DNA of 64,000 bases from Candidatus Poribacteria bacterium (GTDB lineage Bacteria > Poribacteria > WGA-4E > WGA-3G): the NCBI GenBank assembly GCA_965215265.1, contig OZ244048.1, forward strand, positions 416,001 to 480,000, given 5' to 3'. The notes under the pieces were generated by a model. It made no database searches, was not told the origin of the DNA, and worked only from the letters and a program-made list of their open reading frames with translations. The stretch's first letter is position 1; each line of letters starts with the position of its first letter. Below, in pieces: positions 1,967-52,328 of the stretch. Made by a program: the position numbers and the translations under genes.

Positions 1967-2422
1967 TCACGCCTCCTCTCGTAGTAATTCATCAATTGCG
2001 TCAGAAAGATTCCAGATTGGATCATCCTTTCCATCTTGCAGCATCCTGGCTATATGGGGGACCCCCGCCGCAGCGAGCCCATTCGCGATAGTCATCATGC
2101 GCCGTGGATTTTCCACAACTTGCACGTCATCATCAACTGCTATAGCAATTAACATTACTGTCTGGAACCGCCAACTGTCTCGGTCAAAGATTGAACCTTG
2201 GATGAACGTGAAAGTTTCCTGTTTGGATAGGTTGACTAGTTCGAGTTCCTTTCGCACTGCAAACGATAATCCTGCAAACCATAAATCAACCATTCGCGGG
2301 AAAGGGCTTCGATCTACACTTGCCTGTCTACTTGTTTGGCAGTAACGATCATAAACATCGCGCTGAGTCTTAGGGGCGATTAAATCCATACTAGCAAAGG
2401 GATTATGATATTGCTGTGCCAC
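1967..2422 (-). CDS. Dnd-associated protein 4 / PbeD-like protein
   Basis: 151 aa. The pattern 'SPFPRMVDLWFAGLSFAV...MLIAIA...ANGLAAAGV' resembles dnd-system-associated protein 4 (recognised from memory). Last gene of the helicase-small protein-ATPase module. Confidence 0.5.
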   Translation of the reverse strand: MAQQYHNPFASMDLIAPKTQRDVYDRYCQTSRQASVDRSPFPRMVDLWFAGLSFAVRKELELVNLSKQETFTFIQGSIFDRDSWRFQTVMLIAIAVDDDVQVVENPRRMMTIANGLAAAGVPHIARMLQDGKDDPIWNLSDAIDELLREEA

Positions 2423-2444: not shown

Positions 2445-4553
2445 TTACACTTCTGTTTCTACATCCATTCGCCGCTGGCACAAGCGGCATTTCTTACGGT
2501 GATTGCATTCACACCGTAGTGTCTTACGTTGCTCTACCCGTGGATCATTAACTAAAATTCGCGGATAGTGTGCCGAGTTTGTCAACGTTATCACACGCCC
2601 TGCTTCTTCATCCAGAATTTCTTCACAGTCTGCAATCTCGGAGCGCGTGAGAAATAGAATAAGCTGCGAGCTTTCCCGGATGGCAGTCCTAAGTACGGAC
2701 CGCTTCACATAGCCGCTCATCATTCCGAGCGGTGTATCAAGCACATTCGGGGCTTCGACTTCACTAACCTTAGTTAGAGCAAGGATAAAGGCAAAGGTCA
2801 GTGCACGACGAGATGCACCGTTAAGATCTTGGTCAGGGTTTAGCATTTGATTATTTAAACCGTAGACCAGAATATCATAATCCTTGCTGATTTCTGCCCT
2901 TTGAATGATCGCCCCTTGTTTTGGATCAGCACCGATCATTTCAAGAAAAATCTCGTTCATTTTACAGCTGACTTTCATCAATTCTTCATCTGTAATCCGG
3001 TCGTAGGACTTCTTCAGAACACTTTGTACATCGCGCGCCACATCCAGACTCGCAAGTATGTGTTTACCTTTCCTCTGTTTACTAAGAAGGTTATCGCGCC
3101 GCAATACCAAGCTTTTACGCTCTTTTTTTAGTCCTTCAAGTTGTGTTTCAGCTCCCCCTAAACGACGGGAAAGGTGGGTCTTCTGGTCAGTGTAGTCCTG
3201 CTCGGTAGAGCGAAGACCCTGAATATTGATGTCAGGTATAAGGTCCAACTGTGCTTCAAGATCCTTAAGTTTTTCACCTTGTTCATCGCGTTTCCTTTTA
3301 AGTTTATCTCGGCACTCCACGATTTTCTCGTACTCAGCAATCCAATCCTTATTGTTAGCGGTTTCATCCAGTTGCAAGTCACGCGAACCGTAATAGAGGT
3401 CAGTGAGCTTACTTTGAAGAACATCTGCTTGTTGGCTTTCATCAATCAGGCACTGGATGTGGTCTCTTCGCTTCTTGCCATCAACTGTCTGTGAATCTAA
3501 CGACTCACCACAAATGCAAGTAATTCCCTGGAGACGCTCTTCCAAGACAGGAATGGTTGCACTAGGAATCTTGCCCTGAGTGTGCAACTTACTTAGCTTT
3601 TCAAGGCTTTTTTTCAACGTCGGAGCAAGCAGGTCGCGTGAGAAGAACATACCTCTAAAAAGGTGAGAATGTTTTTGACCAGCAGCAGCGAGATTCTTGT
3701 CAAGTTGCTTTAGCTGCACCTTGGTTTCTGCAATATCGATTTTAAGTTTTTCCCGGTCGCCCTTAACTAATGCGATTTCAATTTGTTCCCGGGTTCCCTC
3801 AATTTGTTTATGAATCGCGGCAATCTGCGATTTATAATCGACTATGTTTTTCTCAAGCTTCCTATACGCGGTTTCTATCTCTTCCAATTCTGCAGCAACG
3901 CTTGTGAGTTCCTTATGGATGTCAAGTGATTTTGCTGCTTTGTTGAAGTCAGAAATTGTCGTTTTTATATGTGACCTGGCCTTGTCAATGTAATTCAGTC
4001 CCAAAAGCGAACGGATTGCTTTTTCAACGCGATCTCGCTTGATTTTTTCTGATGCAGTTGCTTCAATGAAACTGAGTGCTCGATCACCGTCAGTAAAGAA
4101 CACCTCCCTTAGTTCAGGCGGAAGTTCTTCTTTAATCCGCACGTTAGGTTTATCCACGTCCTTGCTCCCCGTATCTGTTAATTCAAATAAACGGACCTCT
4201 GGATTATCCATTACACCATCTAATTTTTCATAACCAGCCCGGATAATACGGTATCGTATAGTGTCATCCGGACCGCTCCGACTAAGCCTCTTTGTCTCAA
4301 ATTCAACCTGTACAGATATTGGAATTCGCTGACCATCTGCTGCGTCCCAATCGATCGGATGTAGACGGTAGTCTTTGCCCTTTTCTGGCAATGCATCATT
4401 ACCATAAAGAGCCCATTGAAGTCCATTGAGGATAGTGGTTTTTCCACTTTCGTTCTCTGCCCGAATAACCGTTAGCCTTTTATCCGTTGAAAAGTCTAAC
4501 TTTAAATCACGTAGCAGACGGAAATTTTCAAATTGGGCACGGATAAGTTTCAT
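2445..4553 (-). CDS. SMC/Rad50-like ABC ATPase with CxC hook (PbeC/DndD-like)
   Basis: N-terminal 'FENFR', Walker A AENESGKTT, long coiled coil with central CICG, signature LNGASRR, Walker B NVLDTPLG, C-terminal CECxxxxxCxxC. Confidence 0.85.
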   Translation of the reverse strand: MKLIRAQFENFRLLRDLKLDFSTDKRLTVIRAENESGKTTILNGLQWALYGNDALPEKGKDYRLHPIDWDAADGQRIPISVQVEFETKRLSRSGPDDTIRYRIIRAGYEKLDGVMDNPEVRLFELTDTGSKDVDKPNVRIKEELPPELREVFFTDGDRALSFIEATASEKIKRDRVEKAIRSLLGLNYIDKARSHIKTTISDFNKAAKSLDIHKELTSVAAELEEIETAYRKLEKNIVDYKSQIAAIHKQIEGTREQIEIALVKGDREKLKIDIAETKVQLKQLDKNLAAAGQKHSHLFRGMFFSRDLLAPTLKKSLEKLSKLHTQGKIPSATIPVLEERLQGITCICGESLDSQTVDGKKRRDHIQCLIDESQQADVLQSKLTDLYYGSRDLQLDETANNKDWIAEYEKIVECRDKLKRKRDEQGEKLKDLEAQLDLIPDINIQGLRSTEQDYTDQKTHLSRRLGGAETQLEGLKKERKSLVLRRDNLLSKQRKGKHILASLDVARDVQSVLKKSYDRITDEELMKVSCKMNEIFLEMIGADPKQGAIIQRAEISKDYDILVYGLNNQMLNPDQDLNGASRRALTFAFILALTKVSEVEAPNVLDTPLGMMSGYVKRSVLRTAIRESSQLILFLTRSEIADCEEILDEEAGRVITLTNSAHYPRILVNDPRVEQRKTLRCECNHRKKCRLCQRRMDVETEV

Positions 4554-4569: not shown

Positions 4570-4794
4570 CTATTTTAGTTGATTCCGGCTCTCTGCAAGA
4601 GAGTCGCCAGTCTTTTGACAAATTTCGCGTATTTTTTGGTGAATAGGTGTCATCTTCAAAAGATGTTCCTTTTCGTGTTCGAGGATTTTATCTATGGCAC
4701 CAGCAAGTTCCTCCTTGTACCCATCGTACCTTTCCTCAATAGATTGGCATTCATGAAAGATAATGTCAAAGATTTTTTGTCTATTGAACAGCAT
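4570..4794 (-). CDS. Small helical protein between helicase and ATPase (PbeB-like position)
   Basis: 74 aa with an AGGAG RBS, tightly packed in the operon. Confidence 0.65.
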   Translation of the reverse strand: MLFNRQKIFDIIFHECQSIEERYDGYKEELAGAIDKILEHEKEHLLKMTPIHQKIREICQKTGDSLAESRNQLK

Positions 4795-4805
4795 GATTCT
4801 CTCCT

Positions 4806-6941
4806 TTATAGATAAATCGCTTTAACAAGTCGATCAATAATATCCAAAGGCCCATCAGTTCTACCTGCATTCAGAGCGAGTTTAGAAAATTTCATAACTC
4901 GCGAGAGTTCTGATTCAATAAGTTTGCGTGCCTCATCGTCGATATCATCCATGTTCGATGGCAATGCAATAAAATCGTGAATTTCGCTATGTGTCTTGTC
5001 AGTTTCACGACATGTCCGAAGGAGCCTCCCTCGACGCTGTACCCATTGCCGCTCTACTGTAGTACTGGCCAGGATGAACGCCTTTTTAATCTGCGGAATG
5101 TTCACACCTTCATCAAGCACGCGCTTTGCAGTCAGCACATGCAATGTCCCCTCCTGAAAGGATTGGATAATTTTCGCTGTTTTTTCACTGTTCGGTGTTT
5201 CCTTGTATGTGAGTTGGTGAAAAAGCACACCGCGTGCCTTCAATAAAGCATTGACAGCCTCAAGTTGCTGCGGTGCCTTGTCTGATGCGTAAATTAATGT
5301 GTACTGGAGTTGTCGAAACCCCTCACGTGTCAAGACCGCCTCCAACGCCTCGATCTTATTTTCCGCGTTCTCTAAGAGAGCACGCCTATCCCGAAGCAAC
5401 TTCATCAGATACTCATCAGTTTCATTTTCTTCCTTACGCCAAGAATTCGCCTTGATTTTTTCCGTAAGTGCATACCATTGGTCCATTTCGTCCTCTGTGA
5501 GTTCCACAGGATGAACGTAATACTCGTATTCAACGAGGCATCGCCCGATTGCTTCCTCGAGCGTGAATTGGAAAACAACCGGACCGAAAAATGAGAACAG
5601 GACCTCTGTCCCGTGTTCATCATATTGACGGATCGGAGTTGCCGAAAGACCCAGCCTATAATCAAAAAAAGTCGGCAGGTCAGTGATGAATCTCTCACTT
5701 CCCAGATTGTGTACTTCATCCGCAATGAGCAAAGTCTTACAATCCATTTTTTTGATTTCCGTTTTAAACTCGCTATTGCATAGTGTAACATGAGAAACGA
5801 CAACAATTTCAATGCCGCTTCTTCCAATTCGAAGCCGTCGTCTTATCTTATTAAGTTCACGTGCCCGTCCTCTTGCTCCTGTAGACGCTGTCAGATTAAC
5901 AGCCGTGAGTCCAAAGGGCAAAATCTCATCACACCACTGTTGAATGAGCGGAATGTAGGGTGCTGCAACAACGATAAGCAGCGGCTTCTGCACATTGTAA
6001 AGCCTATGTGCACAAATCATAGCAGTAATCGTTTTGCCTGAACCGGTCGCCATTTCTAAGATACCTTGATAATCCGCTTCGCACCACGCATCTACAGCCC
6101 TGCCTTGATGTTCAAAGGGGCCATCCTGAAATCGGAGTTCTGATGGTATTACAAATGAAGTACGAGACGAATCGTAATCGGCAGGAGATTCCTTTATCGA
6201 GCCAGTCGCCTGGTCGTAGAGTGTCCGAAAATCTGTCTCGGTTGGCGGGATGTCTGAACGATAAGTGTGAAGTAGATCGTCGCGAATAGCTTGGGGCATC
6301 TCAACCACGATACAACTCTCAACCTCATTTTCCCAAAGTTGTTTGAACTGGTCACAAAACCTTTCTGTAGTGTAGTGCTGGGTAGGATCTTCCCAGGATT
6401 TAGAAATGGAAATTTGCTCAATATTCTTCTGAATACCGGCATAAGTCATATTGCTAGATCCGTGTGCTGCAATCACGTCATCACCTTTCCGAAAGAGCCA
6501 GACCTTTGGATGGAAGAGTGCATCTTTCATAACGGCTATCTTGATTTGGACGCGTCTCCTATGCAGCAGCCACGACAGACACTTCAGTGTATGTTGCGCA
6601 ATAAGGTCTTCAGTGACAAACATATCTTCTAAAATTGCATTAGCGCTATTTTCCGAAGAGGTTAGCCCTTCTTCTATTGCCTCCCTATCTTCAGAGCGGA
6701 GCAGAGGACTGATAATTAAGCGAAAACTCTCCTCTGAGGAGTTGATAAAGGTTGCCAAGCCCGGGGCTAGCGACACGAAGATGTCGCTAGAAAAGAATCC
6801 CATCATGCCATCAACTTGAGTCGCTGACTGAAAGCAAGGGATCAGGACCTCTTCAGACACCGGATCGTCAGGTAGTATGTAGAGAGGTCTAATATTAGGC
6901 ACAGCCTGAAGCGTCATCTCATTAAGCTCCAACATCTTCAT
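4806..6941 (-). CDS. PLD-nuclease + SF2 (DEAD/DEAH) helicase (PbeA / dnd-associated restriction enzyme-like)
   Basis: HKD-type motif HPK...GSSN; MATGSGKT; DEVH; LGLSATP; LDEGVNIP; QRRGRLLR. Confidence 0.88.
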   Translation of the reverse strand: MKMLELNEMTLQAVPNIRPLYILPDDPVSEEVLIPCFQSATQVDGMMGFFSSDIFVSLAPGLATFINSSEESFRLIISPLLRSEDREAIEEGLTSSENSANAILEDMFVTEDLIAQHTLKCLSWLLHRRRVQIKIAVMKDALFHPKVWLFRKGDDVIAAHGSSNMTYAGIQKNIEQISISKSWEDPTQHYTTERFCDQFKQLWENEVESCIVVEMPQAIRDDLLHTYRSDIPPTETDFRTLYDQATGSIKESPADYDSSRTSFVIPSELRFQDGPFEHQGRAVDAWCEADYQGILEMATGSGKTITAMICAHRLYNVQKPLLIVVAAPYIPLIQQWCDEILPFGLTAVNLTASTGARGRARELNKIRRRLRIGRSGIEIVVVSHVTLCNSEFKTEIKKMDCKTLLIADEVHNLGSERFITDLPTFFDYRLGLSATPIRQYDEHGTEVLFSFFGPVVFQFTLEEAIGRCLVEYEYYVHPVELTEDEMDQWYALTEKIKANSWRKEENETDEYLMKLLRDRRALLENAENKIEALEAVLTREGFRQLQYTLIYASDKAPQQLEAVNALLKARGVLFHQLTYKETPNSEKTAKIIQSFQEGTLHVLTAKRVLDEGVNIPQIKKAFILASTTVERQWVQRRGRLLRTCRETDKTHSEIHDFIALPSNMDDIDDEARKLIESELSRVMKFSKLALNAGRTDGPLDIIDRLVKAIYL

Positions 6942-6970: not shown

Positions 6971-7789
6971 CTACTTATAACAAATCAGACACGGTTCCTC
7001 ATCGTCTTCATCGTCGTGCACATCCGTAAGGATATCTATCAGCCGCCGATTCGGACGAGCCGCCCGCTTCGCCGCCTTCGACTCTTCAGCATGTGCCTTA
7101 ATCTGCTCAATGCGTTCCGGGTCCGAAAGCTCGTCTAAACTCTCGCTCTGACACCATGTGAACCGTTCACCGGTATCAGGGTCAAATTTCTCGTATGCCT
7201 TGGCGAGTTCAAAAAGGTCGGGATGTTTCTCCAGCAACCCTACCCACTCGGATTTACGCTGGAAGAAGCAGAAATAGCACCCGGAACGCGTCCGCCAATC
7301 GTAATAGTCCGGCATCCCGAGCCCACTCTCCTCCAGAATGCGGTAGACATCCTGTTTCGTGATACCATCTTCCTTAAAAGGATATTTCGGCTCAATGTTT
7401 CGCAACTCCGCGTTTTTCAGCGGCTTATAACCGACGCGATCCTCATCTGCACGAATCGCGATGTAGTTGTACGCCTTGTCGTCACCGACATATCTCTCAA
7501 ACGGTTTAATCTTGAGATTGACGGTACACCAACGCACCTGTGGCGATGGCAACAAGCCCCCTAAAACCGTCAACCAGTGATCGAAATCCCGCTCCGTATT
7601 CAGACGGGCGATCGGTTTGCCGAGGAACGCCTCCAGCCGATCCAAAAACGCATACGTCTCCGGCAATTCTTTCCCAGTATCTGAGAACACATATTCCATC
7701 TCCGGCACCCGGTCACGCATATAAATCGCGAGTGCAGAACTATCTTTCCCACCGGAGAGCCCAAGAATGTGTCGTCTCTGCTGTTCCAT
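6971..7789 (-). CDS. sspD: PAPS-reductase-family phosphorothioation enzyme (SspD/DndC-like)
   Basis: SGGKDS PP-loop, RWCT, RSGCYFCFFQ, C-terminal CLIC. Start set to ATG 7789 after a GGGAGG RBS. Confidence 0.8.
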   Translation of the reverse strand: MEQQRRHILGLSGGKDSSALAIYMRDRVPEMEYVFSDTGKELPETYAFLDRLEAFLGKPIARLNTERDFDHWLTVLGGLLPSPQVRWCTVNLKIKPFERYVGDDKAYNYIAIRADEDRVGYKPLKNAELRNIEPKYPFKEDGITKQDVYRILEESGLGMPDYYDWRTRSGCYFCFFQRKSEWVGLLEKHPDLFELAKAYEKFDPDTGERFTWCQSESLDELSDPERIEQIKAHAEESKAAKRAARPNRRLIDILTDVHDDEDDEEPCLICYK

Positions 7790-7799
7790 GTTTTCCTCC

Positions 7800-10700
7800 C
7801 TATTCTTGAAGTTGTTGCATCCATTTCTGTGCAATTCGTGCGAAAATAGCGACGCGAAGCTCAAGGGTATCAGTGCCCATCCCAAACTGCTTAAAGACCT
7901 CATCAATAGCCTTTTCTATTTCGGAAGCCTGCTTATCAGCCGCTGATGGTAAAGTGACGACCCGCTCCTGTTCGGCTTGGTGAGGCCGTGTAATGCCGAC
8001 CCGAACAGGTTCACTAGATGACGGCTGACGGCACGCTTGTTCTTCATAAGAAACGGCTTCAAAATGATGGAATTGTCGCGCGAGCGTCGAAAGATTCATC
8101 TCAAATAGAGCGTTATCTTCGTCATTCCAAGATCTCGGCGGTTTGTTAGCTACATAGAGCGCCACTGCCTCAAGCCAGTCAGTGCGATTCCGAAGCTTGC
8201 CATCGCAGACTCGACGGAGAAATCCGTTGAGCCTCCCCCCAACGGTAATTTCCAACAGCGGCTCTGCTCTGCGAACCAGTACACGCTGAAGCTCTTTCTC
8301 GTCTTCCAAAGCGAACGTCGTCTTAAGTCGTTGTTCAATCGAATTCAACAGACTCTCGTAGACCTGCCGCAATTCAGATAAAACCTCCTGTAGTCTGCTG
8401 CAGAAGTCCGAAACTACCTGCGAGTCCACGATTTCCGGGCTGAAAACCGGAAATCCGAGGGCCTTCGGCAGCTCCCCAAAAAGCAGCTCATCCGGTTCAC
8501 GCGCATTCGTAACCGATGTACGCAGCCTCTTAGCTTCATCGCTCAACTCCTCCGTTTTCAAAGTGTAGTCTGGAAGTTGTGCAATAAATTGCATAAGCGG
8601 TGCAACCACCGTCAATAAATCAGGTTCTCCAGGTTCCGACGATTGACGGAGTACCTTCAGAAATTGCTCGAACAACTCGCCCCGGATAGCTGTCATCCGG
8701 AAGCGCTTGATCTCAAATCGTTGCGGCATTTTAAGCAGCCGCTCAAAAAGCGGCACTGACCATTCCGGGGCAAAGCCCCCATTTTCGTAGAGCGCGATTT
8801 CCGACTTGTAATGCAGCAGAGCAGCACACAACAGAATCGGCAGCAGACCATTTCGAACACCGTAAGGCTCGGCCTCTAAGCATTTATAGAGAGCTACTAC
8901 CGGTTGCCGCTCGCCTTCACACTCCTCAAGAAACGCATCTATTTCTCCCCACACGGGCATCAGACTTTCTTCCGTTGGCGGACAAAACCCCCACATGTCC
9001 GAAACTTTGCGATGCATGCCCGTACTCTCTAACACAGAACGGTAGATGCTCATTTCAGCCGGGTAACCGTTGATGCCGAGGTTTTCCATGTCACTCCTCT
9101 CAAGCATCGCCTCAATCAATTTTCTTCGGGCAGTCGCCGCTGTCGCAGAAATACTACGTCTATTGATGAGCTCATTACGAATAATAGGTGTCCCAGGGTA
9201 AACCTGCTTACAGATTTCTGACAAATATCTGTTCCGCGCACGTTGGGAGTTGATACTTTCTACAGGTTTCCCTTTGTGGTACCAGAGACAAGTTTTATCT
9301 CTATCCTTGTCGCCCTTAAAAATTTCGGTTAGTTGACCGGACACTGCGCGTTCTGCTTCCATCTGCCGCAGGAGGAGCTCCCGTCTTGCAACTGCATCGC
9401 CCTCCAATTCCGGGGTGTTTTCCGCAACCCAATGTAGACAGGCAAGTTCAAAGACAACCTCTTGCAGCGACTCGATCGAACGTGGAATCGCAACCAACAC
9501 CGCCGCGTGCGCGACACTGTCCATGCCGCACGCCTTCTCAATGAACTGATCGACCTGTTCCTGCGTCGCAGGTAGCGTGTAAAGGATCAGACCGTCCGCA
9601 TCCTCGAACGGTTCACTCAGATCTGCCTCGAAGTTCTCAAGATTGGTGTACCGAACAGTGAAATGACGGAGGGTCCCTGTCTCAAACAGATGCTGCCGTG
9701 CAACGAGCGGACGCGGTTGTGTATAGCGCGAGAGGTCTGCAGCAAGCACTAACTCCGAACCAATATGGGCCGCGGCTTCGCGGAGCCGTACCTCAATATC
9801 AATATCACTCCCTTCCCAAAGGGCGTAGGTGTCATTGTAACGACGGTATATCACAATGGATCGCCTTTTCAGATCTGCAAGCGCCTCCTCAAATCCTCCT
9901 CCGTTAGCGTCTAACGCATAACGCAGCATTTGTGCTGAGGCTTTCAGCTCAGGAATCCCTGTGTTAACAACATTGAGTAACCCAATAGTTTTAATCAGAC
10001 GAAGCGCTAACGGTGAAGGATCCGATAAGCAATCTAAGGCAGATTCAATTTCTACCCATTTTTTCCCGTTATGAGAAGCATAAAGCCGATGCCCTTGTGT
10101 AGTATGAAGGTAGTCATACAGTTCAGCGAGCGAAAACAGAGGCAGAACCTCTCCATCGTAAGATTCTGATGCCAAAAAGTCTTGTAGCCCATGCGGTTCG
10201 CTTGAACTCAGGAAAGCAAAGAGCGAACGTTCATTCTGTGAGAACCGCCGGAAAAGCGGCCCGATCATGAGGGCCACCGTCGGATGCAGCGGCAGACAAC
10301 TCTTCAATAACAAAATAAATTCGTCTTCATTCAATTGGCGCGGTTTTAGTCCTAAAGCAATTGCATTGTTAAGATTAGGCGGCACGACAACCTCTGGATG
10401 CCGCACCAATGCCGCACTAATTAACCGAAGCACCTGCTCAGTCGGCTCCGTAAACACCACATCCTCGAACCGGCCCTGAACCTTCGCCCACTCTTCTCGT
10501 TGTGACCTACTCGCACGTTCCACGTAAAATTCAAAAGCTTGATGCAGGATCGTCATCAGGAAGAACGGTGCCGGCGTACTGCGATCCGCCAATTCGGCGA
10601 GGCTCTGCAGAACAAATATATCTGCTTGTGCCGGACGATCCGCAGCATATTCGAGAAACTTTCCCAGCTCGTCAACCACCACCAGCAGCCCGGAACCTCC

Positions 10701-11279
10701 AGCATCACAAATTTGACGTGTCGCCGATTCAAATAGCGCAGTTATCTCAGAGGCAGACGGCGAACCCCCATTTGCTACCATTTCTTTCAGGTTGTCGAGA
10801 ACCGCAGCAGCACCCCAATCGCCGTTTGAACGACTGAGCCCATGCTGCAGACCCCGCAGCAGACTACGCGTAAGCGGCGCACGTTCCCCCGAAATCAACA
10901 CAGGACAGAAACCAGATGACGACACCGCCCCCTTACCGTTTGCACCGACAGATACGAATCGCGCATGCAGCTCAGCATCACCCGCCTTCAGGATTTCTAA
11001 AGCCTGGCGCGCCGCGGAAGTGTCACGGGCACCGAGTAACTGTGCCGCAAAGAGTGCAAATGCCGACTTCCCCGAACCATACGGGCCCGTCAGAGACCAC
11101 GCCTTTGAACCACGTTCGTTTTCAAACGTAGAAACCACACGCCCCAACATATCCCGCGCACTCACAGTCAAAACGTACCCATCCAGAACGCTCTCCGTGT
11201 AGAAATCGCGCTCCAGATGCACCGAACGCCTAAAACGCCCCCTAATCTGAAAAATATCTGACAACAAGGTGTTACTCAT
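7800..11279 (-). CDS. sspC: Large P-loop ATPase (SspC/BrxC-like)
   Basis: 'FRRSVHLERD', Walker A GPYGSGKS, Walker B VVVDELGKFLE, PLHP, QNERSLF. Lies between DUF4007 and PAPS reductase, with an ATGA overlap with the upstream gene. Confidence 0.78.
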   Translation of the reverse strand: MSNTLLSDIFQIRGRFRRSVHLERDFYTESVLDGYVLTVSARDMLGRVVSTFENERGSKAWSLTGPYGSGKSAFALFAAQLLGARDTSAARQALEILKAGDAELHARFVSVGANGKGAVSSSGFCPVLISGERAPLTRSLLRGLQHGLSRSNGDWGAAAVLDNLKEMVANGGSPSASEITALFESATRQICDAGGSGLLVVVDELGKFLEYAADRPAQADIFVLQSLAELADRSTPAPFFLMTILHQAFEFYVERASRSQREEWAKVQGRFEDVVFTEPTEQVLRLISAALVRHPEVVVPPNLNNAIALGLKPRQLNEDEFILLLKSCLPLHPTVALMIGPLFRRFSQNERSLFAFLSSSEPHGLQDFLASESYDGEVLPLFSLAELYDYLHTTQGHRLYASHNGKKWVEIESALDCLSDPSPLALRLIKTIGLLNVVNTGIPELKASAQMLRYALDANGGGFEEALADLKRRSIVIYRRYNDTYALWEGSDIDIEVRLREAAAHIGSELVLAADLSRYTQPRPLVARQHLFETGTLRHFTVRYTNLENFEADLSEPFEDADGLILYTLPATQEQVDQFIEKACGMDSVAHAAVLVAIPRSIESLQEVVFELACLHWVAENTPELEGDAVARRELLLRQMEAERAVSGQLTEIFKGDKDRDKTCLWYHKGKPVESINSQRARNRYLSEICKQVYPGTPIIRNELINRRSISATAATARRKLIEAMLERSDMENLGINGYPAEMSIYRSVLESTGMHRKVSDMWGFCPPTEESLMPVWGEIDAFLEECEGERQPVVALYKCLEAEPYGVRNGLLPILLCAALLHYKSEIALYENGGFAPEWSVPLFERLLKMPQRFEIKRFRMTAIRGELFEQFLKVLRQSSEPGEPDLLTVVAPLMQFIAQLPDYTLKTEELSDEAKRLRTSVTNAREPDELLFGELPKALGFPVFSPEIVDSQVVSDFCSRLQEVLSELRQVYESLLNSIEQRLKTTFALEDEKELQRVLVRRAEPLLEITVGGRLNGFLRRVCDGKLRNRTDWLEAVALYVANKPPRSWNDEDNALFEMNLSTLARQFHHFEAVSYEEQACRQPSSSEPVRVGITRPHQAEQERVVTLPSAADKQASEIEKAIDEVFKQFGMGTDTLELRVAIFARIAQKWMQQLQE

Positions 11280-12268
11280 TCTTCCCCTTCTTTGTCATAA
11301 TACTGCTTTAAAAGTCGCATCGACTCTGAATCACACCGACTATCGCGATGGAAAAGTCGCATCGACTCGGAACCACACCGACTATCGCGATGGAGCTGCT
11401 TTAAACCTGCAGTATCATCATATCGCAGTACACCCGCGGTAAGTTCTTCAAGCCTATCGAGATACAGAGTCATCGTGTCTTCATCTATTCTGAAAATTCG
11501 TCCCGGACTTAAGGGTTCATACATCAGCTCTTGGAAGCGCAATGTGTTCGCTGCAGAAAAACGTTTATCCCAAAACGCAATCAGCGTCGCCGTAAAGAGC
11601 TCGACCGGTAAAGTCTCTTTTCTCCCACGCTGGAACTCATAGCCCGCACCCTCCGGCAACTCACCGATTAAGTTGAGCTCAACAAGCGGACAAGCAAAAG
11701 TCTCCTCAACTAAGGCAGCGTTAAAACTATCAGGTGAAGCGCAATACGTCCGAATAAAACAAGTCACATCGCGCCGAAATGTATTGTCAGAAACAGGCCG
11801 CTTCGATACCCGCTGCTGCGATGCCCACTTCGACAATTCCGTTATAAAGGTGTCAAATGTGAATCGATTCTCCTTAAAAATGTTAAATGCCCAATACCAC
11901 GTAGTAGCCTGGTTGATATGAGTTGCAATCTGCCAATGAATGAACCACAGAGTAGCAGGGTCATCGAGGTACGGATCAAATCCGTCTTTCCCAAAAAAAG
12001 CCTCGCCGAGCTCTGTTGGCACAAATACCCCGGGTTGACGTGATACTGTCTCAATAAGTCCAGATACTCTGCACCAGTACCGAATAGAATCCACCATGTT
12101 TTTTCCGACACCTAAAGTGACGGAAGCCTCCTGCGATGAAAAAACATCCGGATCCTCGATTACCGCATCGACACCTTTCTTCAACCACATGTATCGCATC
12201 GGAAACGTCTGATGGCCTGAAAAGGACAGATTTCTTACTTGTGAAGGGTTGAAGCGTAGGTTACTCAA
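11276..12268 (-). CDS. sspB: DUF4007 family protein (SspB-like nickase)
   Basis: FSGHQTFxxRxxWLKKG, LGVGKNMVxSIRYW and DPYLxDxxTLWxIHW are DUF4007 hallmarks. TTG start. Confidence 0.85.
   Translation of the reverse strand: MSNLRFNPSQVRNLSFSGHQTFPMRYMWLKKGVDAVIEDPDVFSSQEASVTLGVGKNMVDSIRYWCRVSGLIETVSRQPGVFVPTELGEAFFGKDGFDPYLDDPATLWFIHWQIATHINQATTWYWAFNIFKENRFTFDTFITELSKWASQQRVSKRPVSDNTFRRDVTCFIRTYCASPDSFNAALVEETFACPLVELNLIGELPEGAGYEFQRGRKETLPVELFTATLIAFWDKRFSAANTLRFQELMYEPLSPGRIFRIDEDTMTLYLDRLEELTAGVLRYDDTAGLKQLHRDSRCGSESMRLFHRDSRCDSESMRLLKQYYDKEGEE
11310..11393. repeat. 42-bp in-frame tandem duplication at the 3' end of sspB
   Basis: Two near-identical copies (11310-11351, 11352-11393) encode HRDSRC(G/D)SESMRL twice. 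Confidence 0.9.
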
Positions 12269-12594
12269 ATTTTGCCCCCAAAAATGTACAAATCCTCAGC
12301 ACATGCAGCCCTGGGGGCAAAAAATTGAGAATAAGCGATAGAGAGACGGTACAACAAAAACAGCCCGCAGCCGGTGCCATCAACCAATATGACACACGAG
12401 CGCACGGACAAAAAATCGGCAAATGCCAATAACGTTTTACTTAATAAAATACTTAACGAATGTGAATTGGGGGGGGGGTCGTGGCCTGTTAAACCTTGTG
12501 TACGAGAGGGATCTCGTGGAATTAACGACCGACAGCAATTGCAACCGGACGCTGGTACTGTTTTAAATCTAGGACTAATATGTTTATTCTTCAT
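12265..12594 (-). CDS. Putative leader ORF containing a C10 tract, translationally coupled to sspB
   Basis: Lies between the promoter and sspB; its TGA overlaps the sspB TTG (TTGA). The tract is at 12469-12478. No recognisable domain. Confidence 0.5.
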   Translation of the reverse strand: MKNKHISPRFKTVPASGCNCCRSLIPRDPSRTQGLTGHDPPPNSHSLSILLSKTLLAFADFLSVRSCVILVDGTGCGLFLLYRLSIAYSQFFAPRAACAEDLYIFGGKI

Positions 12595-12694
12595 CTACTT
12601 TACCGGTTAGATGTGAGGGAGTATAACTTAAACCAGAATGGAAAATAATTGAGATAATACACATTTTTCTGTTCTTCGGGTCATATTTACCTAT

Positions 12695-12723
12695 ATTATA
12701 CCTTAAACTGCAAATCTGTTCAA
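12695..12723 (-). promoter_or_regulatory. Sigma70-type promoter for the leader-ssp-pbe operon
   Basis: Minus strand: TTGAAC - 17 nt - TATAAT. Confidence 0.7.
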
Positions 12724-12785
12724 ACTATTTCCCGGATTTGTCACGTTTTGTTTTATTATATGAATTATCAAATTCTTGTGCGATT

Positions 12786-13652
12786 CTAGCCTTTAAACAC
12801 CTCTCTTAGGTGCCAATCTATAAATTCTTCGTTCGGGTAATCCATCTGGCTATGAGGAAAACTAATTTCTTTTCCGTGGAATCTCATTAGCCATTCTTCA
12901 AAACCGGCTGACCCGTCTGCATCCTCAGATACCACTATTGTCAACTCCTCGGACAATGCAAAGGCCCCCCGGTCGAACAACTTATGATGTAGCGAGCAGA
13001 GAGCCATGCCATTCTCTGCTATATCCGGTCCATCCGCCATGCGCCATTTGATATGAGCCGCCTCTAAAGCGACAGGACGAGCTCGTAACGTTACATTAAA
13101 TCCACAAATCGCACACTCGTGGTTATAAGCATCGAGGATACGGTGCCGGAATTTAGGATCACGGGGCTGCCAGAACGATCCGAAAGATAGTTCAATGCCG
13201 ACAGCTTGTAAAATATCTTCATGGTATGAGATTGGAAAATGAGAAGCTAGCAACCGCCCAGTTATTTCAAAAACTAAACCCAAATCGCTTTTAAGTTTTT
13301 CGGCAATCGCTGCCGGAAAGCTACCGACACCGTACTCCCTCAAATCGGTGACGTACGCATCTCCACTAGCAGTCTGCTGAATTCTATGTGCATCGGATAC
13401 TTGCCAGATGTCGTCGTTTTGCAACCGCCAAAATGGCTGCTCAGGGTGATACCTTTGGCACCACGGTCCAAACTCTTTTAGTAAGTCCTTGAGTTCCTTT
13501 TCAGCTTCTGCAAATGGGATGTACTCAGTTTCGCTGTTCAGCAATTTGCCTATCGCATAAAGTAGCAGCAACGGCTTATGAGGCGCTCTTTCGCCGCCGC
13601 TTTTCCATACATTCAAGTCCTGAAATTTCTGAATAATTGATTCTCTGTCCAT
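12786..13652 (-). CDS. Sulfur-binding-domain (SBD) HNH endonuclease, phosphorothioate-DNA-dependent restriction type
   Basis: SBD motifs RAPHKPLLLL and PFWRL; C-terminal CAIC...LEAAHIK...NGMALCSLHHKLFDRG. Confidence 0.85.
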   Translation of the reverse strand: MDRESIIQKFQDLNVWKSGGERAPHKPLLLLYAIGKLLNSETEYIPFAEAEKELKDLLKEFGPWCQRYHPEQPFWRLQNDDIWQVSDAHRIQQTASGDAYVTDLREYGVGSFPAAIAEKLKSDLGLVFEITGRLLASHFPISYHEDILQAVGIELSFGSFWQPRDPKFRHRILDAYNHECAICGFNVTLRARPVALEAAHIKWRMADGPDIAENGMALCSLHHKLFDRGAFALSEELTIVVSEDADGSAGFEEWLMRFHGKEISFPHSQMDYPNEEFIDWHLREVFKG

Positions 13653-17308: not shown

Positions 17309-20300
17309 ATGAACAAAGAACACATCAGAGAGGCTCTCGCTGCAATATGCACTGGCCCCTTTTTACAAACCGCGAAAAACCTGCTCGCCACGCTCGGCTA
17401 CCGCAGCGATTTGACAGAAGCATTCTCTGGAACAGCCGGCGACTTTATAGAGACTTTCCCCGCATTCAACCCGAACACCCAAACGGAACAAGCCCTCCGA
17501 AACCACGCAGCCTCGATACACTTCATCTTCCAACTCACAGACGCAGAAATAGATGGCGAAACGCAACAGCGGTTAGAACTCTTTGAAGGAAACGATGCGG
17601 AAAGTTTCTTTTTCTTCGCGGTTGAACTAAAAGAGAAAACCTACTCCCGCGGTGCGTACGCAGAATTGACGCGAGAAATCAATAAGCGTCTGATTGTTCC
17701 GACGGTGGTGTTATTTCGTGTGTCAACCCGGCTAACCCTCGGTTTTGTGGGACGCCGTCCACACGAGCACCACCCAGAACGTGATGTTCTCCAACAAGTG
17801 ACACTCATCAAGGATATTCGTCTTGAGGCACCGCACCGTGCGCATTTAGATATCCTCTCTGAACTTTCACGAACAGAATGCCTGAACTGGATGGACGCAA
17901 ATAACAGACAGAAAAACTTAGCCGGACTGCTATCCGCCTGGCTAGCGAAACTCAACACCGAAGCGCTCAATAAGCAGTTCTACCGAAGGTTGTTCAGCTG
18001 GTTTGAGTGGGCAGTGAGGGAAGCGAAGTTCCCGACAGCCGAGCTGAATCCGTTGGGTTCCGAAGCACACATCATCCGGCTCATCACGCGGCTGCTCTTT
18101 ATATGGTTCTTGAAAGAAAAAGGGCTTGTCCCCGAGTGGCTTTTTCAAGATTCCGGGCAGAAAGAGCAGGCGGGCACGCAAAACAACGAGCTGTCTGAAG
18201 AATCTGAACAGAATAGGCAGGTAAGCCTGCAAAACAACCAACAGTCTGAATACCCCCCCCCTTACAGACGTTAAGTCTTCTGCCGAACTCCACGACAGAA
18301 AGCAGCCTGCACGCACACCTCAAAAACTTTGAGCCCGACACATCCGACTACTACCAAGCCATCCTCCAAAACCTATTCTTTGCTACTCTCAACACACCTA
18401 TAAATCAACGCACATTTAGCACACACGATAACCGGAGCCACCGCGACTCAAGCAAATATCGCTATGCTGACCTGCTCCAACAACCCGACACCTTCCTTCA
18501 ACACCTAAAGCACGTCCCATTTGTCAACGGCGGACTGTTTGACTGCCTCGATACCTTTGAGGCAACCGGCGACGGCGGTGTCCGAATAGACTGTTTCTCT
18601 GATAACAAAACAGTTCGGCAAAAATTACACGTCCCCGCAAAACTCTTCTTTGACAAAACACACGGCCTCTTTCCTCTCTTCGCTCACTATAAGTTTACCG
18701 TCGAGGAAAACACACCCATTGAACAAGAAGTCGCGCTCGATCCAGAACTGCTCGGACAGATATTCGAAAACCTGCTCGGCACCTATAACCCCGAAACACA
18801 ATCCACCGCACGCAAAGCCACAGGCTCTTACTACACACCCCGCCAGATTGTCGACTATATGGTAGACGAGGCACTCATCGCATACCTCCTCCAAAACGTC
18901 AAACCCTACGACGGAAACACACAATCCCTTGAAGAACGCCTCCGCGAAGACCTCCTCGCTTACGAATCCCAAGGCAACATTGATGAAGACGCACATCACC
19001 TCATTCATCCAGAGGAAATCCAACCCCTCATTCAGGCAATCGACGCACTCAAAATCATAGATCCAGCCGTCGGCTCCGGGGCTTTCGCTATGGGCATCCT
19101 CAATAAACTCGTGCTCATCCTCCGAAAACTCGACCCGCAGAATCAAAACTGGAAGCAGCGACAACTTCAACAAGCTGAGAACATACCAGATACCCATAGC
19201 CGAGAAAGCGCGAAGCAGGCAATTGAGGCAGTTTTCTCCAAGGCGAATCACTACAACGACTACGGACGTAAACTCTACCTCATCCAAAACGGCCTCTACG
19301 GCATAGATATACAACCCATCGCCGTCACCATAGCAAAACTCCGCTTTTTCATCTCCCTCATCATAGAGCAGATACCCAACCAGAACCCTGACGACAACTA
19401 CGGCATCAGACCCCTCCCCAACTTGGAGACGAAGTTCGTTGCCGCAAACACCCTCATCGGCTTGAAGGGGGCAAAAGAAACGGATTTTCAGCGCTTGCTG
19501 GAAACAGACACCATCCAACAACTCCGCAACGACATTGAAGTCATCCGCGCCAAACACTTCTCCGGCAGCACCCGTCCGCAAAAACTTGAGGCGATGCGAA
19601 AAGAGGAAAAGTGCCGTGAAAAATTGGCACGAGCGCTAAGAACACAGTCGGAACAGTGGACGGTGCAGGAGCAAAGCCGGATATCCCAACAGATTGCGCA
19701 GCTGCCAAAAAAGGAGGCGCGCAACCAACTCCAAGAAAAACTCGAGAAAGCGTATGCAATTCGTCAGCAAAAGCTAACAGCCAGCGTAGAAGAGGCACAG
19801 AAAATCGCAGACTGGAATCCATACAACCAGAACGCCGTCGCCGATTTCTTTGAACCCGCATGGATGTTCGGCATCCACCACGGCTTTCACATCGTCATCG
19901 GCAATCCACCCTACATCCGACACCACAAAATTCACCATCTCAAACCTACCTTGAAAACACAATTTGGTGATTTCTTTACGGGCATGGCAGACATCAGCGT
20001 CTACTTCTACAAACGCGGAGCCGAACTACTACGAGAAGGTGGTTTACTCTCCTACATCTGCACAAACAAGTTTATGCGCAGCGGCTACGGAAAAAAACTA
20101 CGCCAATTCCTAACCGCTGAGATGGCACTAAAAACAATTTTGGATTTCGGCAGCCTTTCCGTCTTTGACGCAGCAGTAAATGCATCCATTCTCCTCGTTC
20201 AAAAGTCGCCACCTACTCCAAACCACACCCTCCATGCGACAACCCTAAGGCATGTTTCAAAGGAATTTAACGTCCGGAAAGCATTTCAAACGCAGGCATT

Positions 20301-21216
20301 CCCGATGCAGCTCGCCTATTTGTCTTCAGAAGAATGGACGTTAGCACGCACAGAAACACTCGCCCTACTACAGAAATTGCAACACACGGGAACATCATTC
20401 AGCGAATCAATACAAGGTCAACTTTATATTGGTATCTTCACCGGATACAATGAAGCATTTATCATAGATGAATCTCTCTGTCAGCAGCTAATAGCAGAGG
20501 ATGCCAAAAGCGCACAACTCATAAAACCTTTACTGCGAGGGCGGAATCTCAAAAAATGGAAAGCGGTATCAGCAAACGAGCACTTGATAGCAATAGCCAG
20601 CAGTGCCAATAAACAGTGGCCCTGGTCAAACGCAGCAAGCGAATCTGAAGCCGAACAGATTTTTGAAAAAACCTATCCAGCAATCCATCGCCATCTAATA
20701 CGCTATAAAGAGCGGCTTTTACCCCGTGATAACCAGGGAAAATTCTATTGGGAGTTGCGTTCGTGCGCCTATTACGACGCGTTCGAAAAGCCGAAGATCA
20801 TCTATCCGGATATTAGCTCATCTATGCGTGCGTGTTATGATACCGCAAACGCTTTTTCCTTACAGACTACCTACATCTTACCTACTGAGGATCTCTCTTT
20901 GCTTGCAATTTTGAACAGCCAACTTTTTGATTGGTATGCCAAATATAAGTTTCAGAGCCTTAACGATCCGTGGATAGGTGGTGGCTTGCGTTTCATTGCT
21001 CAATACATGCGACATGTCCCGATAGCCAATAGAACAGAAGCACAGAAAGCCGCACTCTCACGCCTCGTCGCGCAGATATTGGCAGAACCCAACGGCGATG
21101 CCGTGAACGCACTTGAGAAAGAGATAGATACCTTAGTCTATCAGTTATATGAGTTAACGCCGCAAGAAATTCAACTCATAGAACAGACGTATCGCGACGC
21201 AGGGATGACAGTATGA
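17309..21216 (+). CDS. Type IIG (Eco57I-like) fused restriction-modification enzyme, frameshifted at a C9 tract (18253-18261)
   Basis: The first ORF (17309-18274) carries RLITRLLFIWFLKEKGLVP. The -1 frame is open from 18262 through DYYQAILQNLFF, PFVNGGLF and GSYYTP into the 18859-21216 ORF (DPAVGSGAF, GNPPY, TRD). One extra C gives a single ~1302-aa protein. Confidence 0.88.
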
Positions 21217-50535: not shown

Positions 50536-52328
50536 ATGGAAAACAACTTGAACACCCATTCCGTTGAAAACTATGAATTTGAGCCCATCCAAGGCTACCC
50601 AAGACTCAGCTGGAAAGGAAAACGCCCGTTCCGCGCTACCCAATACTATCCCGCCCAACTCAAGGAGACACACGGCGAGAAAGTCAACGACTGGCGAAAT
50701 AAAATCTATTGGGGCGATAACCTGCAAGTCATGAGCCACCTGCTCAAGACATACCGCGGTAAGATGACCCTCATCTACATAGATCCGCCGTTTGACTCGA
50801 AAGCCGACTATAAGAAAAAAATAGAGCTGAAGGGAAAAAAGATAGAGAACGACCGCACCGCTTTTGAGGAGAAACAGTACACGGACATCTGGACGAATGA
50901 TGAATACCTCCAATTCATGTATGAACGGTTGATTCTACTGCGCGAATTGCTATCGGATAATGGGTCCATCTACCTTCACTGCGATCCAGCAAGGAGCCAT
51001 TATCTAAAGTTGATTATGGATGAGGTGTTTGGTAAAAATAAATTTCGGAATGAGATTATATGGTTTTATCATGATTCTCCAGGGCGCTCAACTAGCTATT
51101 TTCCGCAAAAACATGATGTTATCTTTTGGTATAGTAAAAGCCCAACAAAGTGGATTTTTAATTCTCATGAGGTACGTGTTCCTATTTTAGAAGCATCTAA
51201 AGAAAGGTATAAAAGTACACGAGTCATTGGTGGAAAAAGTTATGTTGGAGGCGAATCTGCTAGTGAGGGTAAAATTCCTGAAGATGTTTGGAGCATTCCA
51301 GTAATTAAAAAAAATTCCAAAGAAGGAAAAGAAGGGTTAGAGTATCCGACGCGAAAACCCGAGGCACTTCTTGAACGCATCATAAAAGCCTCATCCAATC
51401 CCGGTGATCTCGTCTTCGACTGCTTCATGGGCAGCGGCACCACACAAGCGGTTGCGATGAAACTCGGCCGCCGGTTCATCGGCGTTGACATCAACCTCGG
51501 CGCCGTCGAGACCACCTCAAAACGCCTTATAAATCTCGCAGCAAACATTGAGCAGAACACACGCCAACAGAAAATTGACTTTGAAGCGGAAAAAATCGAA
51601 AATACCCCCCCCCTTCTTCATATGTGTTAAGTTCCTATACAGGATTTGAGGTGTATAACGTCAACCACTACGACGTATTCCGCAACCCTATTGAGGCGAA
51701 AGCGCTCCTCATCGAGGCACTGGAAATACAGCCGCTCCCTTCCAGTGCAATATACGACGGCGAAAAAGACGGACACCTCGTCAAAATCATGCCTATCAAT
51801 CGCATTGCTACTCGCGCTGACATCAACGAACTCATCGCAGGATTAGATTACAAAACTTTCGAGAAACGCCAAGAACAACACCCCACCCGTGCCGTCGAAA
51901 AGTTGTTGCTCGTCTGTATGGGACATGAACCTGACCTCGCCGCCGCGTTGCAAAGTGAAGTGCCTTACAAACTTGACATAGAAGTGATGGATATCCTGCG
52001 TGACAAATCCGGGTTAGCGTTCAAACGCGAATCCGAAGCGAATATTGTTCGTAGCAACGGCCAAGTCAGCATAGAGCAGTTCTACCCAATGAACCTGCTC
52101 GAGAAGTTAAGTCTGCTGAAAGAGCACGTTGAAGACTGGCGCGAATTAGTCGAATCGGTGAAAGTTGACTTTAACTACGACGGTGCGGTGCTGAATCCGT
52201 CGGTGGTAGATGTGCCGGAAAAAGAGGGGTGGGTCAAAGGAACTTACCGCATCCCTAAAGATGCAGGCATAATCCGCGTAAAAATTACCGATCTGTTATC
52301 AGAATCTCTCGAAGCAACAGTGGAATAA
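50536..52328 (+). CDS. mod: Type III-like R-M methyltransferase (Mod), frameshifted at a C9 tract (51605-51613)
   Basis: IYWGDNL, YIDPPF, DCFMGSGTT in 50536-51630; continues in the -1 frame (YTGFEVYNVNHYD...RVKITDLL) to 52328. One extra C gives ~597 aa. Confidence 0.85.

Follow-up and report, generated by a model that had tools for sequence, protein, structure and literature searches.

A poly-C tract inside a leader open reading frame as a candidate phase-variable switch of a Poribacteria phosphorothioation operon

This analysis concerns the leader of an sspBCD phosphorothioation operon in a Candidatus Poribacteria bacterium (assembly GCA_965215265.1, contig OZ244048.1, forward-strand positions 416,001 to 480,000), a 64-kb stretch of DNA that we refer to as the window and whose coordinates are used for its features; the leader and the ssp genes are all located on the minus strand. 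Upstream of sspB, the first gene of the operon, lies an open reading frame (ORF) that contains a run of ten C (C10) and that ends on the start codon of sspB. Judging from conservation at orthologous loci and from predicted folds, this leader ORF is probably a phase-variable switch with two layers, in which the length of the tract would set both the read-through of a terminator and the unmasking of the sspB start with re-initiation at the overlapping TTGA.

The leader open reading frame and its poly-C tract

The gap of 517 nucleotides (nt) on the minus strand between an HNH endonuclease gene (13652..12786) and sspB (12268..11276) contains all leader elements, which are the following.

12695..12723, minus strand: promoter-like site of the sigma-70 type, TTGAAC-17-TATAAT, with 10 of 12 consensus positions matched
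12265..12594, minus strand: leader ORF of 109 codons with C10, from ATG (12594-12592) to TGA (12267-12265)
12469..12478, minus strand: C10 homopolymer in the sequence, proline-coding, the proposed frame selector
12451..12468, minus strand: conserved post-tract block AATTCACATTCGTTAAGT, whose TAA (12455-12453) shuts one alternative frame
12437..12439, minus strand: TAA within ATTAAGTAA, which shuts the second alternative frame (C8, C11, C14) upon recomputation with other tract lengths
12405..12430, minus strand: small hairpin ATTGGCATTTGCCGAT followed by TTTTTTG, the first terminator-like site (hairpin scan)
12351..12409, minus strand: two-tier hairpin (12409-12361) followed by TTTTTGTTGT (12360-12351), resembling an intrinsic terminator and located within the long leader frame (fold)
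12264..12329, minus strand: 66-nt hairpin, in which the anti-Shine-Dalgarno (anti-SD) sequence TTTTTTGCCCCC and CTCAA pair with the sspB SD GGGGG (12279-12275) and the TTG (fold, -29.6 kcal/mol)

The promoter-like site and the 109-codon ORF had been described in an earlier note on this DNA, and both were confirmed, including the overlap of the leader TGA with the TTG start of sspB (12268-12266), which together form TTGA (12268-12265). Because an in-frame TGA is located at 12298-12296, this TTG is the first possible sspB start, and an N-terminal extension of SspB is ruled out by the same stop codon. When the ORF was rebuilt in silico with 6 to 14 C, tracts of C7, C10 and C13 gave the long ORF terminating on TTGA, C6, C9 and C12 led to the TAA of GTTAAGT (12455-12453), and C8, C11 and C14 led to the TAA of ATTAAGTAA (12439-12437); over this computed range, a one-base change in C10 alters the leader reading frame. 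The stops that the earlier note had named for C9 and C11 are borne out, whereas its claim that only C10 yields the long ORF is right for C10 but too narrow, as C7 and C13 (multiples of three away) yield it too. The tract encodes at least three prolines in the rebuilt ORFs. C runs of at least 8 account for seven overlapping matches at three sites in the window, compared with 0.82 expected, and none of 100 shuffles reached seven.

The leader ORF belongs to no family in Pfam, PADLOC or NCBIfam, an opposite-strand ORF (12374..12610) has no Pfam family, and the five Rfam matches to 12100-12900 at E up to 10 are every one far under the gathering score. On the opposite strand, a promoter-like ATGCCA-16-TAAAAT (12423-12450, plus strand) is directed back across the tract and may give rise to an antisense transcript. 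The promoter-spacer type of repeat switch, represented by Bordetella fim, was rejected, since the tract does not lie between hexamers and the only promoter-like sites are located more than 200 nt upstream of it; a scan downstream of the tract found no promoter-like site in the window or in two related loci, L057 and L060.

Of 112 genomes of the same family, 76 encode SspB, and 50 sspB loci were examined (30 returned plus the next 20 by rank), of which 21 are tract-bearing and 29 tract-less. The 21 C tracts (at least 7 C) are located 137-287 nt upstream of sspB, always with C on the sense strand, and measure 8 (four loci), 9 (three), 10 (six), 11 (three), 12 (two), 13, 14 and 17 C. At all 21 loci, an ATG is found in just one of the frames upstream of the tract, at a distance of 100-137 nt from it, and this leader ATG is kept throughout, with L072 having lost the first ATG and using an in-frame ATG five codons on. 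Downstream of the tract, at least one frame is open to sspB in 21/21 loci (two in L069 and L077), and the remaining frames are shut 7-32 nt after the tract. The long frame stops at +4 nt relative to the sspB start in eight loci, at +8 in 12 and at +19 in one, the +4 and +8 stops being the TGA or TAA of a conserved TTGAGTAAC; a stop/start overlap as expected for translational coupling is therefore found as TTGA in the window and at +4 or +8 in 20 of the 21 orthologues. The post-tract peptide varies with the frame, reading TLQTIS... or FTNDKY... from the same nucleotides, which argues that the open frame is kept and not the peptide sequence. A tract and an overlap conserved despite a divergent leader peptide, which the earlier note had named as a check of its proposal, are thus present in 20/21 tract-bearing loci.

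On average, 37% of the dinucleotide shuffles left one or more frames open, i.e. 7.7 of 21 loci expected compared with 21 observed, and the reverse strand as control was open in 8/21 loci. The tract-bearing loci also differ from the tract-less ones in their surroundings, as an HNH endonuclease homologue is encoded upstream in 21/21 of the former and in 0/29 of the latter. From this we conclude that the HNH gene is a linked module which strictly accompanies the ssp operon in its poly-C-leader form. The sspB start is TTG in 20/21 tract-bearing loci and GTG in the remaining one, whereas an ATG start is on offer in at least 19 of 22 tract-less loci checked; in the genome contig collection, SspB relatives were found at only two loci, both of them tract-less with ATG starts. 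A single TTGACA-18-TAAAAT site (11/12 positions, with TG) precedes the leader ATG in both L057 (1114-1152) and L060 (2729-2690). Since 6-8 nt separate the end of its -10 hexamer from that ATG in these relatives, the leader mRNA may be leaderless there.

The TAA at +16 sits in a TAAG that is invariant in 20/20 aligned rows; this conservation of TAAG(T) after the tract (12451-12457, minus strand) exceeds what a stop codon needs. Such invariance, together with GTTAAGT following tracts in coding and non-coding contexts, would fit a tract and TAAG block that act without translation, as a protein-binding or nicking site, a target of a small RNA (sRNA) or an RNA structure, with the ORF being incidental, and simple sequence repeats (SSRs) in transcribed leaders that act through RNA are known (PMC12721329, PMC8295292). 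We assign this explanation a very small probability, since it accounts neither for the ATG in 21/21 loci, including the replacement ATG of L072, nor for the early stops in exactly the two other frames combined with a long frame ending on the sspB start.

The tract also differs in length between close relatives. Over all 701 nt compared, contigs from the runs X2, X5 and X6 (two further studies, plus one more sample of the likely source study) differ by 0-1 substitutions and by one missing tract base, i.e. C9, which corresponds to the short-ORF state, although tract lengths come from assemblies and contigs, in which homopolymer miscalls are possible; in run X7 two contigs end at the tract, which we read as a hint only. 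Near-identical repeats within the genome likewise differ, e.g. C8, C8 and C11 at 1292291, 1294312 and 290654. With the same caveat on miscalls, two features of contingency loci are present: the length differs among near-identical genomes, and C8-C17 occur at the orthologous site in 21/50 loci. These findings support, at the level of sequence, the proposal of the earlier note that phase variation could occur without breaking a functional coding sequence (CDS), given the C9 and C10 versions of near-identical contigs (miscalls being possible) and the location of the tract in a leader ORF.

As assembled, 4/21 reference genomes are in the long state and 17/21 in the short state. The prevalence of the short state would also be consistent with a graded, non-heritable device, in which slippage of polymerase or ribosome at the C run feeds a fixed fraction into the long frame and length differences are neutral. 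Homopolymers promote transcriptional and ribosomal slippage, and with at least three prolines in the tract, poly-proline stalling may tune that fraction. Nevertheless, such a device is quite improbable in our view, because near-identical genomes and repeats differ in tract length, as is seen at classical contingency loci, and because both alternative frames are shut within 32 nt, as expected of a digital switch.

Predicted terminator and masking hairpin, and proposed mechanism

The two-tier hairpin with its T-run folds at -22.7 kcal/mol in the window. Across 20 aligned leaders, 91.2% of cells are paired compared with 33-45% when the register is slid, both sides have changed in 6 of 13 pairs of the stem, and only 1-8 of 500 shuffles reach the observed measures; the folds of the individual loci range from -7.5 to -31.6 kcal/mol and are followed by 5-7 T in 19/20 rows, the other row being mis-cut. 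In contrast to this hairpin, the first terminator-like site (12405..12430) does not keep its T-run in relatives. The distance from the terminator T-run to the sspB start is about 24 nt in L060, L070 and L075, which leaves little or no room for a separate promoter, and since promoter-like sites were found only upstream of the leader ATG (window, L057, L060), sspB transcription must pass the hairpin. On this comparative evidence, hairpin and T-run are the best-supported structure of the ssp leader. The earlier note had considered ribosome delivery to sspB and overlooked this conserved terminator within the long frame, which indicates that the device probably controls read-through by the polymerase in addition to the delivery of ribosomes.

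In E. coli pyrBI, an intrinsic terminator is located within the pyrL leader ORF, and a ribosome close behind the polymerase blocks the hairpin. The ssp leader resembles pyrBI in that its terminator is promoter-proximal, lies between the promoter and the first structural gene and falls in a leader ORF reaching that gene; the ORF runs through the terminator in the long frame only, the short frames having their stops 45 nt or more ahead of the stem. It differs in the input, which is pausing dependent on uridine triphosphate (UTP) in pyrBI and a proposed heritable frame change at the C tract in ssp, and in the end of the ORF, which overlaps the structural gene start in ssp but terminates just before the gene in pyrBI. 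Nothing in the present data points to pausing that depends on the nucleotide pool in ssp. By analogy, the ssp leader would work like the pyrBI attenuator, but we do not class it as a member.

The second predicted structure concerns the start of sspB. In the fold of the window, all 13 of 13 bases of the SD window are paired and the TTG is buried; 6-13 of 13 are paired in the predicted folds of relatives, in which the pairing potential of the masking hairpin is 78.5% compared with 32-59% when slid. A ribosome finishing the long leader ORF would, according to this prediction, open the hairpin that masks SD and TTG. The claim of the earlier note that tract length decides on the delivery of ribosomes to sspB thus gains support from sequence and fold, namely from the overlap in 20/21 loci, the TTG start, the predicted hairpin and the C9 and C10 versions of the tract.

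The genome (4.83 Mb, 48.1% G+C) contains 100 C/G runs of at least 8, of which 39 lie inside long ORFs, 50 were classed as other and 11 follow a leader design, defined as a post-tract frame of 60-450 nt whose stop is no more than 8 nt away from where an ORF of at least 100 amino acids begins in another frame. These 11 precede sspB, five Type ISP restriction-modification enzymes, one ABC transporter and four lipoprotein genes, the lipoproteins including NPCBM-domain proteins. For the Type ISP genes (1250 amino acids; e.g. at 147411, 905173, 3160206, 1462078 and 3432067), the stop of the poly-C leader ORF overlaps or abuts the ATG. An nhmmer profile of the 21 ssp leaders retrieved paralogous leaders in the genome (E of 3.7e-7 to 3e-4 for five) that have in common a TTGACA promoter, a hairpin, a terminator and an ATG located 130 nt ahead of the tract. 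The ssp-like leaders before C5 methylase and FGE-sulfatase proteins lack the stop/start overlap; they cross a terminator and end 54-285 nt before the gene. Conversely, the paralogous leaders at 147411 and 2944205 have the overlap, and the scan found no hairpin with T-run in them, so the terminator is not universal to the design. As some leaders have a terminator and no overlap and others the reverse, the two layers seem separable, and the ssp leader has both. From the sequences we conclude that the ssp device belongs to a family of candidate poly-C switches that extends across the lineage, which the earlier note had overlooked.

Taken together, these elements lead us to favour a mechanism in which the C tract would be a slippage-prone length switch that fixes the reading frame of a translated leader ORF. 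With C10 (or C10 plus or minus 3), ribosomes from the leader ATG would continue for about 200 nt, through the terminator and the hairpin masking SD and TTG, and terminate on the TTGA overlap; this translation would suppress termination, unmask the sspB start and allow re-initiation, turning the seven-gene sspBCD/Pbe-like operon ON. Either of the other two length classes would halt ribosomes 16 or 32 nt past the tract, some 45 nt short of the terminator stem, so that both structures, terminator and masking hairpin, would form and the operon would be OFF. The anatomy of the leader, its conservation, the predicted structures and the length polymorphism are shown by the present analysis, whereas leader translation, the long frame as the ON state and the share of each layer are inferred.

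Each layer could also act on its own. Coupling alone, as the earlier note had it, would leave read-through constant, and the tract would decide on the arrival of ribosomes at TTGA and the masked start. The stop/start overlap in 20/21 orthologues and 11 paralogous leaders, the TTG start, the predicted masking hairpin and the two paralogous leaders with an overlap and no detectable terminator all agree with this, but we consider it rather unlikely, since the terminator (91% pairing, 6/13 pairs compensatory) lies between the only promoter-like site and sspB, and since several paralogous leaders end 54-285 nt before the gene, where re-initiation cannot act. Polarity alone, in which an early stop uncouples ribosome and polymerase, the intrinsic terminator, or Rho that loads on the untranslated C-rich leader, ends the transcript and the overlap adds nothing, would draw on the conservation of the terminator and its compensatory changes. 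Rho prefers C-rich RNA. Furthermore, overlapping stop/start upstream ORFs (uORFs) of M. tuberculosis may suppress Rho termination (bioRxiv 10.1101/2022.06.01.494293). Polarity alone nevertheless seems unlikely, as it leaves the conserved TTG, the placement of the stop at +4 or +8 and the SD-masking hairpin unexplained.

A number of points weigh against the two-layer switch. Its support is wholly comparative or predicted, and the tract lengths on which it builds are subject to the miscalls mentioned above. The 21 loci are kin and not independent trials; shuffles open 17-76% of the time per locus, as the region is poor in stop triplets, which are scarce in all frames after +60, so that the long frame is partly due to composition. 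The codon-position entropy of the leader N-terminus (14.4, 13.6 and 16.1) reveals only a slight third-position bias, and a clear SD is missing from most leaders. With regard to the structures, L057 and L060 gave no terminator in the simple scan, RNAalifold retained only 5 pairs when run on the full leader alignment, the paralogous leaders at 147411 and 2944205 lack a hairpin with T-run in the scan, and the masking hairpin shows weak covariation, as its values are reached by 22-115 of 500 shuffles. Moreover, sspB has a good SD-like G run of its own and would not depend strictly on coupling should the hairpin breathe, and the 17/21 genomes in the short state fit a switch but also decay. In the extreme case, the leader would be a chance ORF or a decaying remnant and the C9/C10 difference an assembly artefact; shuffles do open in 31% of trials at the window locus and contigs cannot prove the true length, but with the full architecture conserved in 21 loci and paralogous leaders and with the strict HNH linkage this is extremely improbable. 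As judged by these comparisons, the leader ORF is not a chance ORF.

The operon, its neighbours and further poly-C tracts

The genes of the operon and the gene directly upstream of the leader are the following.

11276..12268, minus strand: sspB, DUF4007 (Pfam 1.7e-86; PADLOC SspB 1.8e-97), TTG start
11279..7800, minus strand: sspC (PADLOC SspC E=0, 1098.8 bits)
7906..6971, minus strand: sspD (PADLOC SspD 2.7e-116)
6941..4806, minus strand: PbeA-like PLD-helicase (PADLOC PbeA 3.5e-199)
4794..4570, minus strand: ORF of 74 amino acids, no PADLOC match
4553..2445, minus strand: PbeC/DndD-like ATPase (PADLOC PbeC 1.8e-48)
2422..1967, minus strand: ORF of 151 amino acids, no PADLOC match
12786..13652, minus strand: phosphorothioated-DNA-binding HNH endonuclease gene, directly upstream of the leader (NCBIfam NF045808 4.6e-99, 331 bits compared with a cut-off of 180)

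The seven genes from sspB to the ORF of 151 amino acids are spaced by -107 to +29 nt, which confirms the seven-gene phosphorothioation operon proposed in the earlier note. SspB, SspC and SspD are encoded together, as expected of an Ssp phosphorothioation module. Of four Pbe proteins, only the PbeA and PbeC models were matched; because the ORFs of 74 and 151 amino acids remained without match, the restriction module is named Pbe-like only. No cysteine desulfurase gene adjoins the operon, and eight PF00266 matches over the cut-off are located elsewhere in the genome; IscS can replace SspA as cysteine desulfurase (PMC8092258). At the sspB/sspC junction an ATGA overlap is followed by GTAAC as at the leader/sspB junction (11276-11282 and 12260-12268, minus strand), and both genes share the opening (T/A)TGAGTAAC (M-S-N). 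An N6/N4 DNA methyltransferase gene (650-1537, minus strand) follows the operon at a distance of 429 nt and is co-oriented with it.

Two further tracts of the window lie inside genes. C9 followed by TTACAGACGTTAAGT (18253-18261, plus strand) lies mid-gene within an Eco57I/MmeI-like type IIG restriction-modification gene that the assembly shows split into the ORFs 17309..18274 and 18859..21216; seven near-identical copies of this tract context occur in the genome, with C8 or C9. C9 followed by ...GTGTTAAGT (51605-51613, plus strand) splits an N6/N4 DNA methylase (Mod-like) ORF into 50536..51630 and 51624..52328, and a ResIII-helicase gene (52348..55029, plus strand) is next. This Mod-like and ResIII-helicase locus looks like a type III-like system that is phase-variable within its CDS.

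Genome-wide, GTTAAGT trails most tracts irrespective of the gene concerned, both within coding sequence and outside it. TTAA[GC] occurs within 30 nt after 65 of the 100 C/G runs compared with 4% of random windows. The pattern C8-N5-16-TAAGT was found in 53 of 99 other genomes of the family and in 8 of 51 genomes from other families of the phylum sample, with a reversed-pattern control near zero in most genomes and few exceptions, e.g. 12 in G017. The exact ssp-type motif is present in 20 stretches of the species collection, 18 of which are titled as Poribacteria metagenome-assembled genomes (MAGs) and two as 'uncultured bacterium'; Poribacteria are known as sponge symbionts. A palindrome ACTTnAC-N4-GTnAAGT was considered and set aside, as by eye it fits some tract families and not most.

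Tentatively, with doubt prevailing, the ssp leader may be an instance of a lineage-specific portable cassette of C tract and ...TAAGT block, in which the block would mark a dedicated trans-acting process and not merely a stop codon. If true, such a cassette would be placed, in relatives titled as Poribacteria, in leaders, at 5' ends and at mid-gene sites, giving stochastic control of restriction-modification, phosphorothioation, transporters and surface lipoproteins, and a factor nicking or binding beside the tract would drive length changes or copy the cassette to new sites.

Known systems and significance

Neisseria and Bordetella offer classical homopolymer contingency loci. The ssp locus resembles these in its poly-C/G tract of at least 8, its length polymorphism and its association with defence and surface genes, and 39/100 other tracts in this genome lie inside CDSs as classical ones do; it differs in that its tract belongs to a leader ORF distinct from the regulated genes and would act on an entire operon, whereas classical tracts lie in the regulated CDS or in a promoter spacer. 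The H. influenzae mod gene is an example of a phase-variable restriction-modification gene (PMC6435447). Repeats in leaders are represented by the heptamer repeats in the 5' untranslated region of H. influenzae hmw1A, where RNase III is involved (PMC12721329), and by the G-repeat of H. pylori tlpB, which is targeted by the sRNA RepG (PMC8295292). In both cases, as in the proposed ssp switch, the repeat is located between promoter and gene, the functional CDS stays intact and the action is post-transcriptional. Their output is graded through hairpin processing or sRNA pairing, whereas for the ssp repeat, which lies in a putatively translated frame, an output with three states set by the frame would be expected.

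A heritable 5'-leader switch deciding on premature termination is also described for C. difficile flgB, where an invertible leader acts with Rho (PMC7446863), but there the change is a recombinase-driven DNA inversion without a leader ORF, whereas in ssp it would be repeat slippage. The TTGA or ATGA overlap, the weak start codon and the predicted structure of the initiation region are shared with stop/start-coupled systems and with the uORFs of M. tuberculosis, in which upstream translation is thought to protect against premature termination (bioRxiv 10.1101/2022.06.01.494293); unlike described coupled uORFs, the ssp upstream ORF holds an SSR as the candidate switch. As in SspABCD-SspE, SspBCD-SspFGH and Dnd-Pbe systems, sspB, sspC and sspD form an operon with the desulfurase elsewhere and a co-oriented restriction partner downstream (PMC8092258). 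In contrast to known Ssp systems, this partner matches PbeA/PbeC models and not SspE or SspFGH, and a gene for an HNH endonuclease that binds phosphorothioate (PT) DNA lies upstream.

SSR contingency loci, leader-peptide attenuation, stop/start coupling and leader SSRs are each known kinds of control. A 2018 phosphorothioation review notes PT heterogeneity and states that no SSRs were observed in dnd genes or promoters (PMC6435447), and Antonov et al. handle phase variation and coupling as separate classes (PMC3711429). The literature search, which covered papers and not their supplements, found no paper with a repeat inside a leader ORF gating an attenuator or coupling and nothing on phase variation in Poribacteria. 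Repeat-driven phase variation is known from genes and promoters, whereas attenuation and coupling are known as physiological controls.

If true, the joining of both would give a compact switch for a multi-gene operon, by which modification and restriction are switched together without a truncated protein, a point that matters for toxic defence systems, and it would be the first SSR switch reported for a phosphorothioation system. The arrangement also provides a rule for hidden contingency loci in MAGs, namely a tract that is preceded by an ATG and followed by early stops in two frames, with a long frame that terminates on a start codon. Finally, the pairing of the HNH gene with the poly-C form of ssp hints at a population alternating between PT-protected and PT-attacking states.

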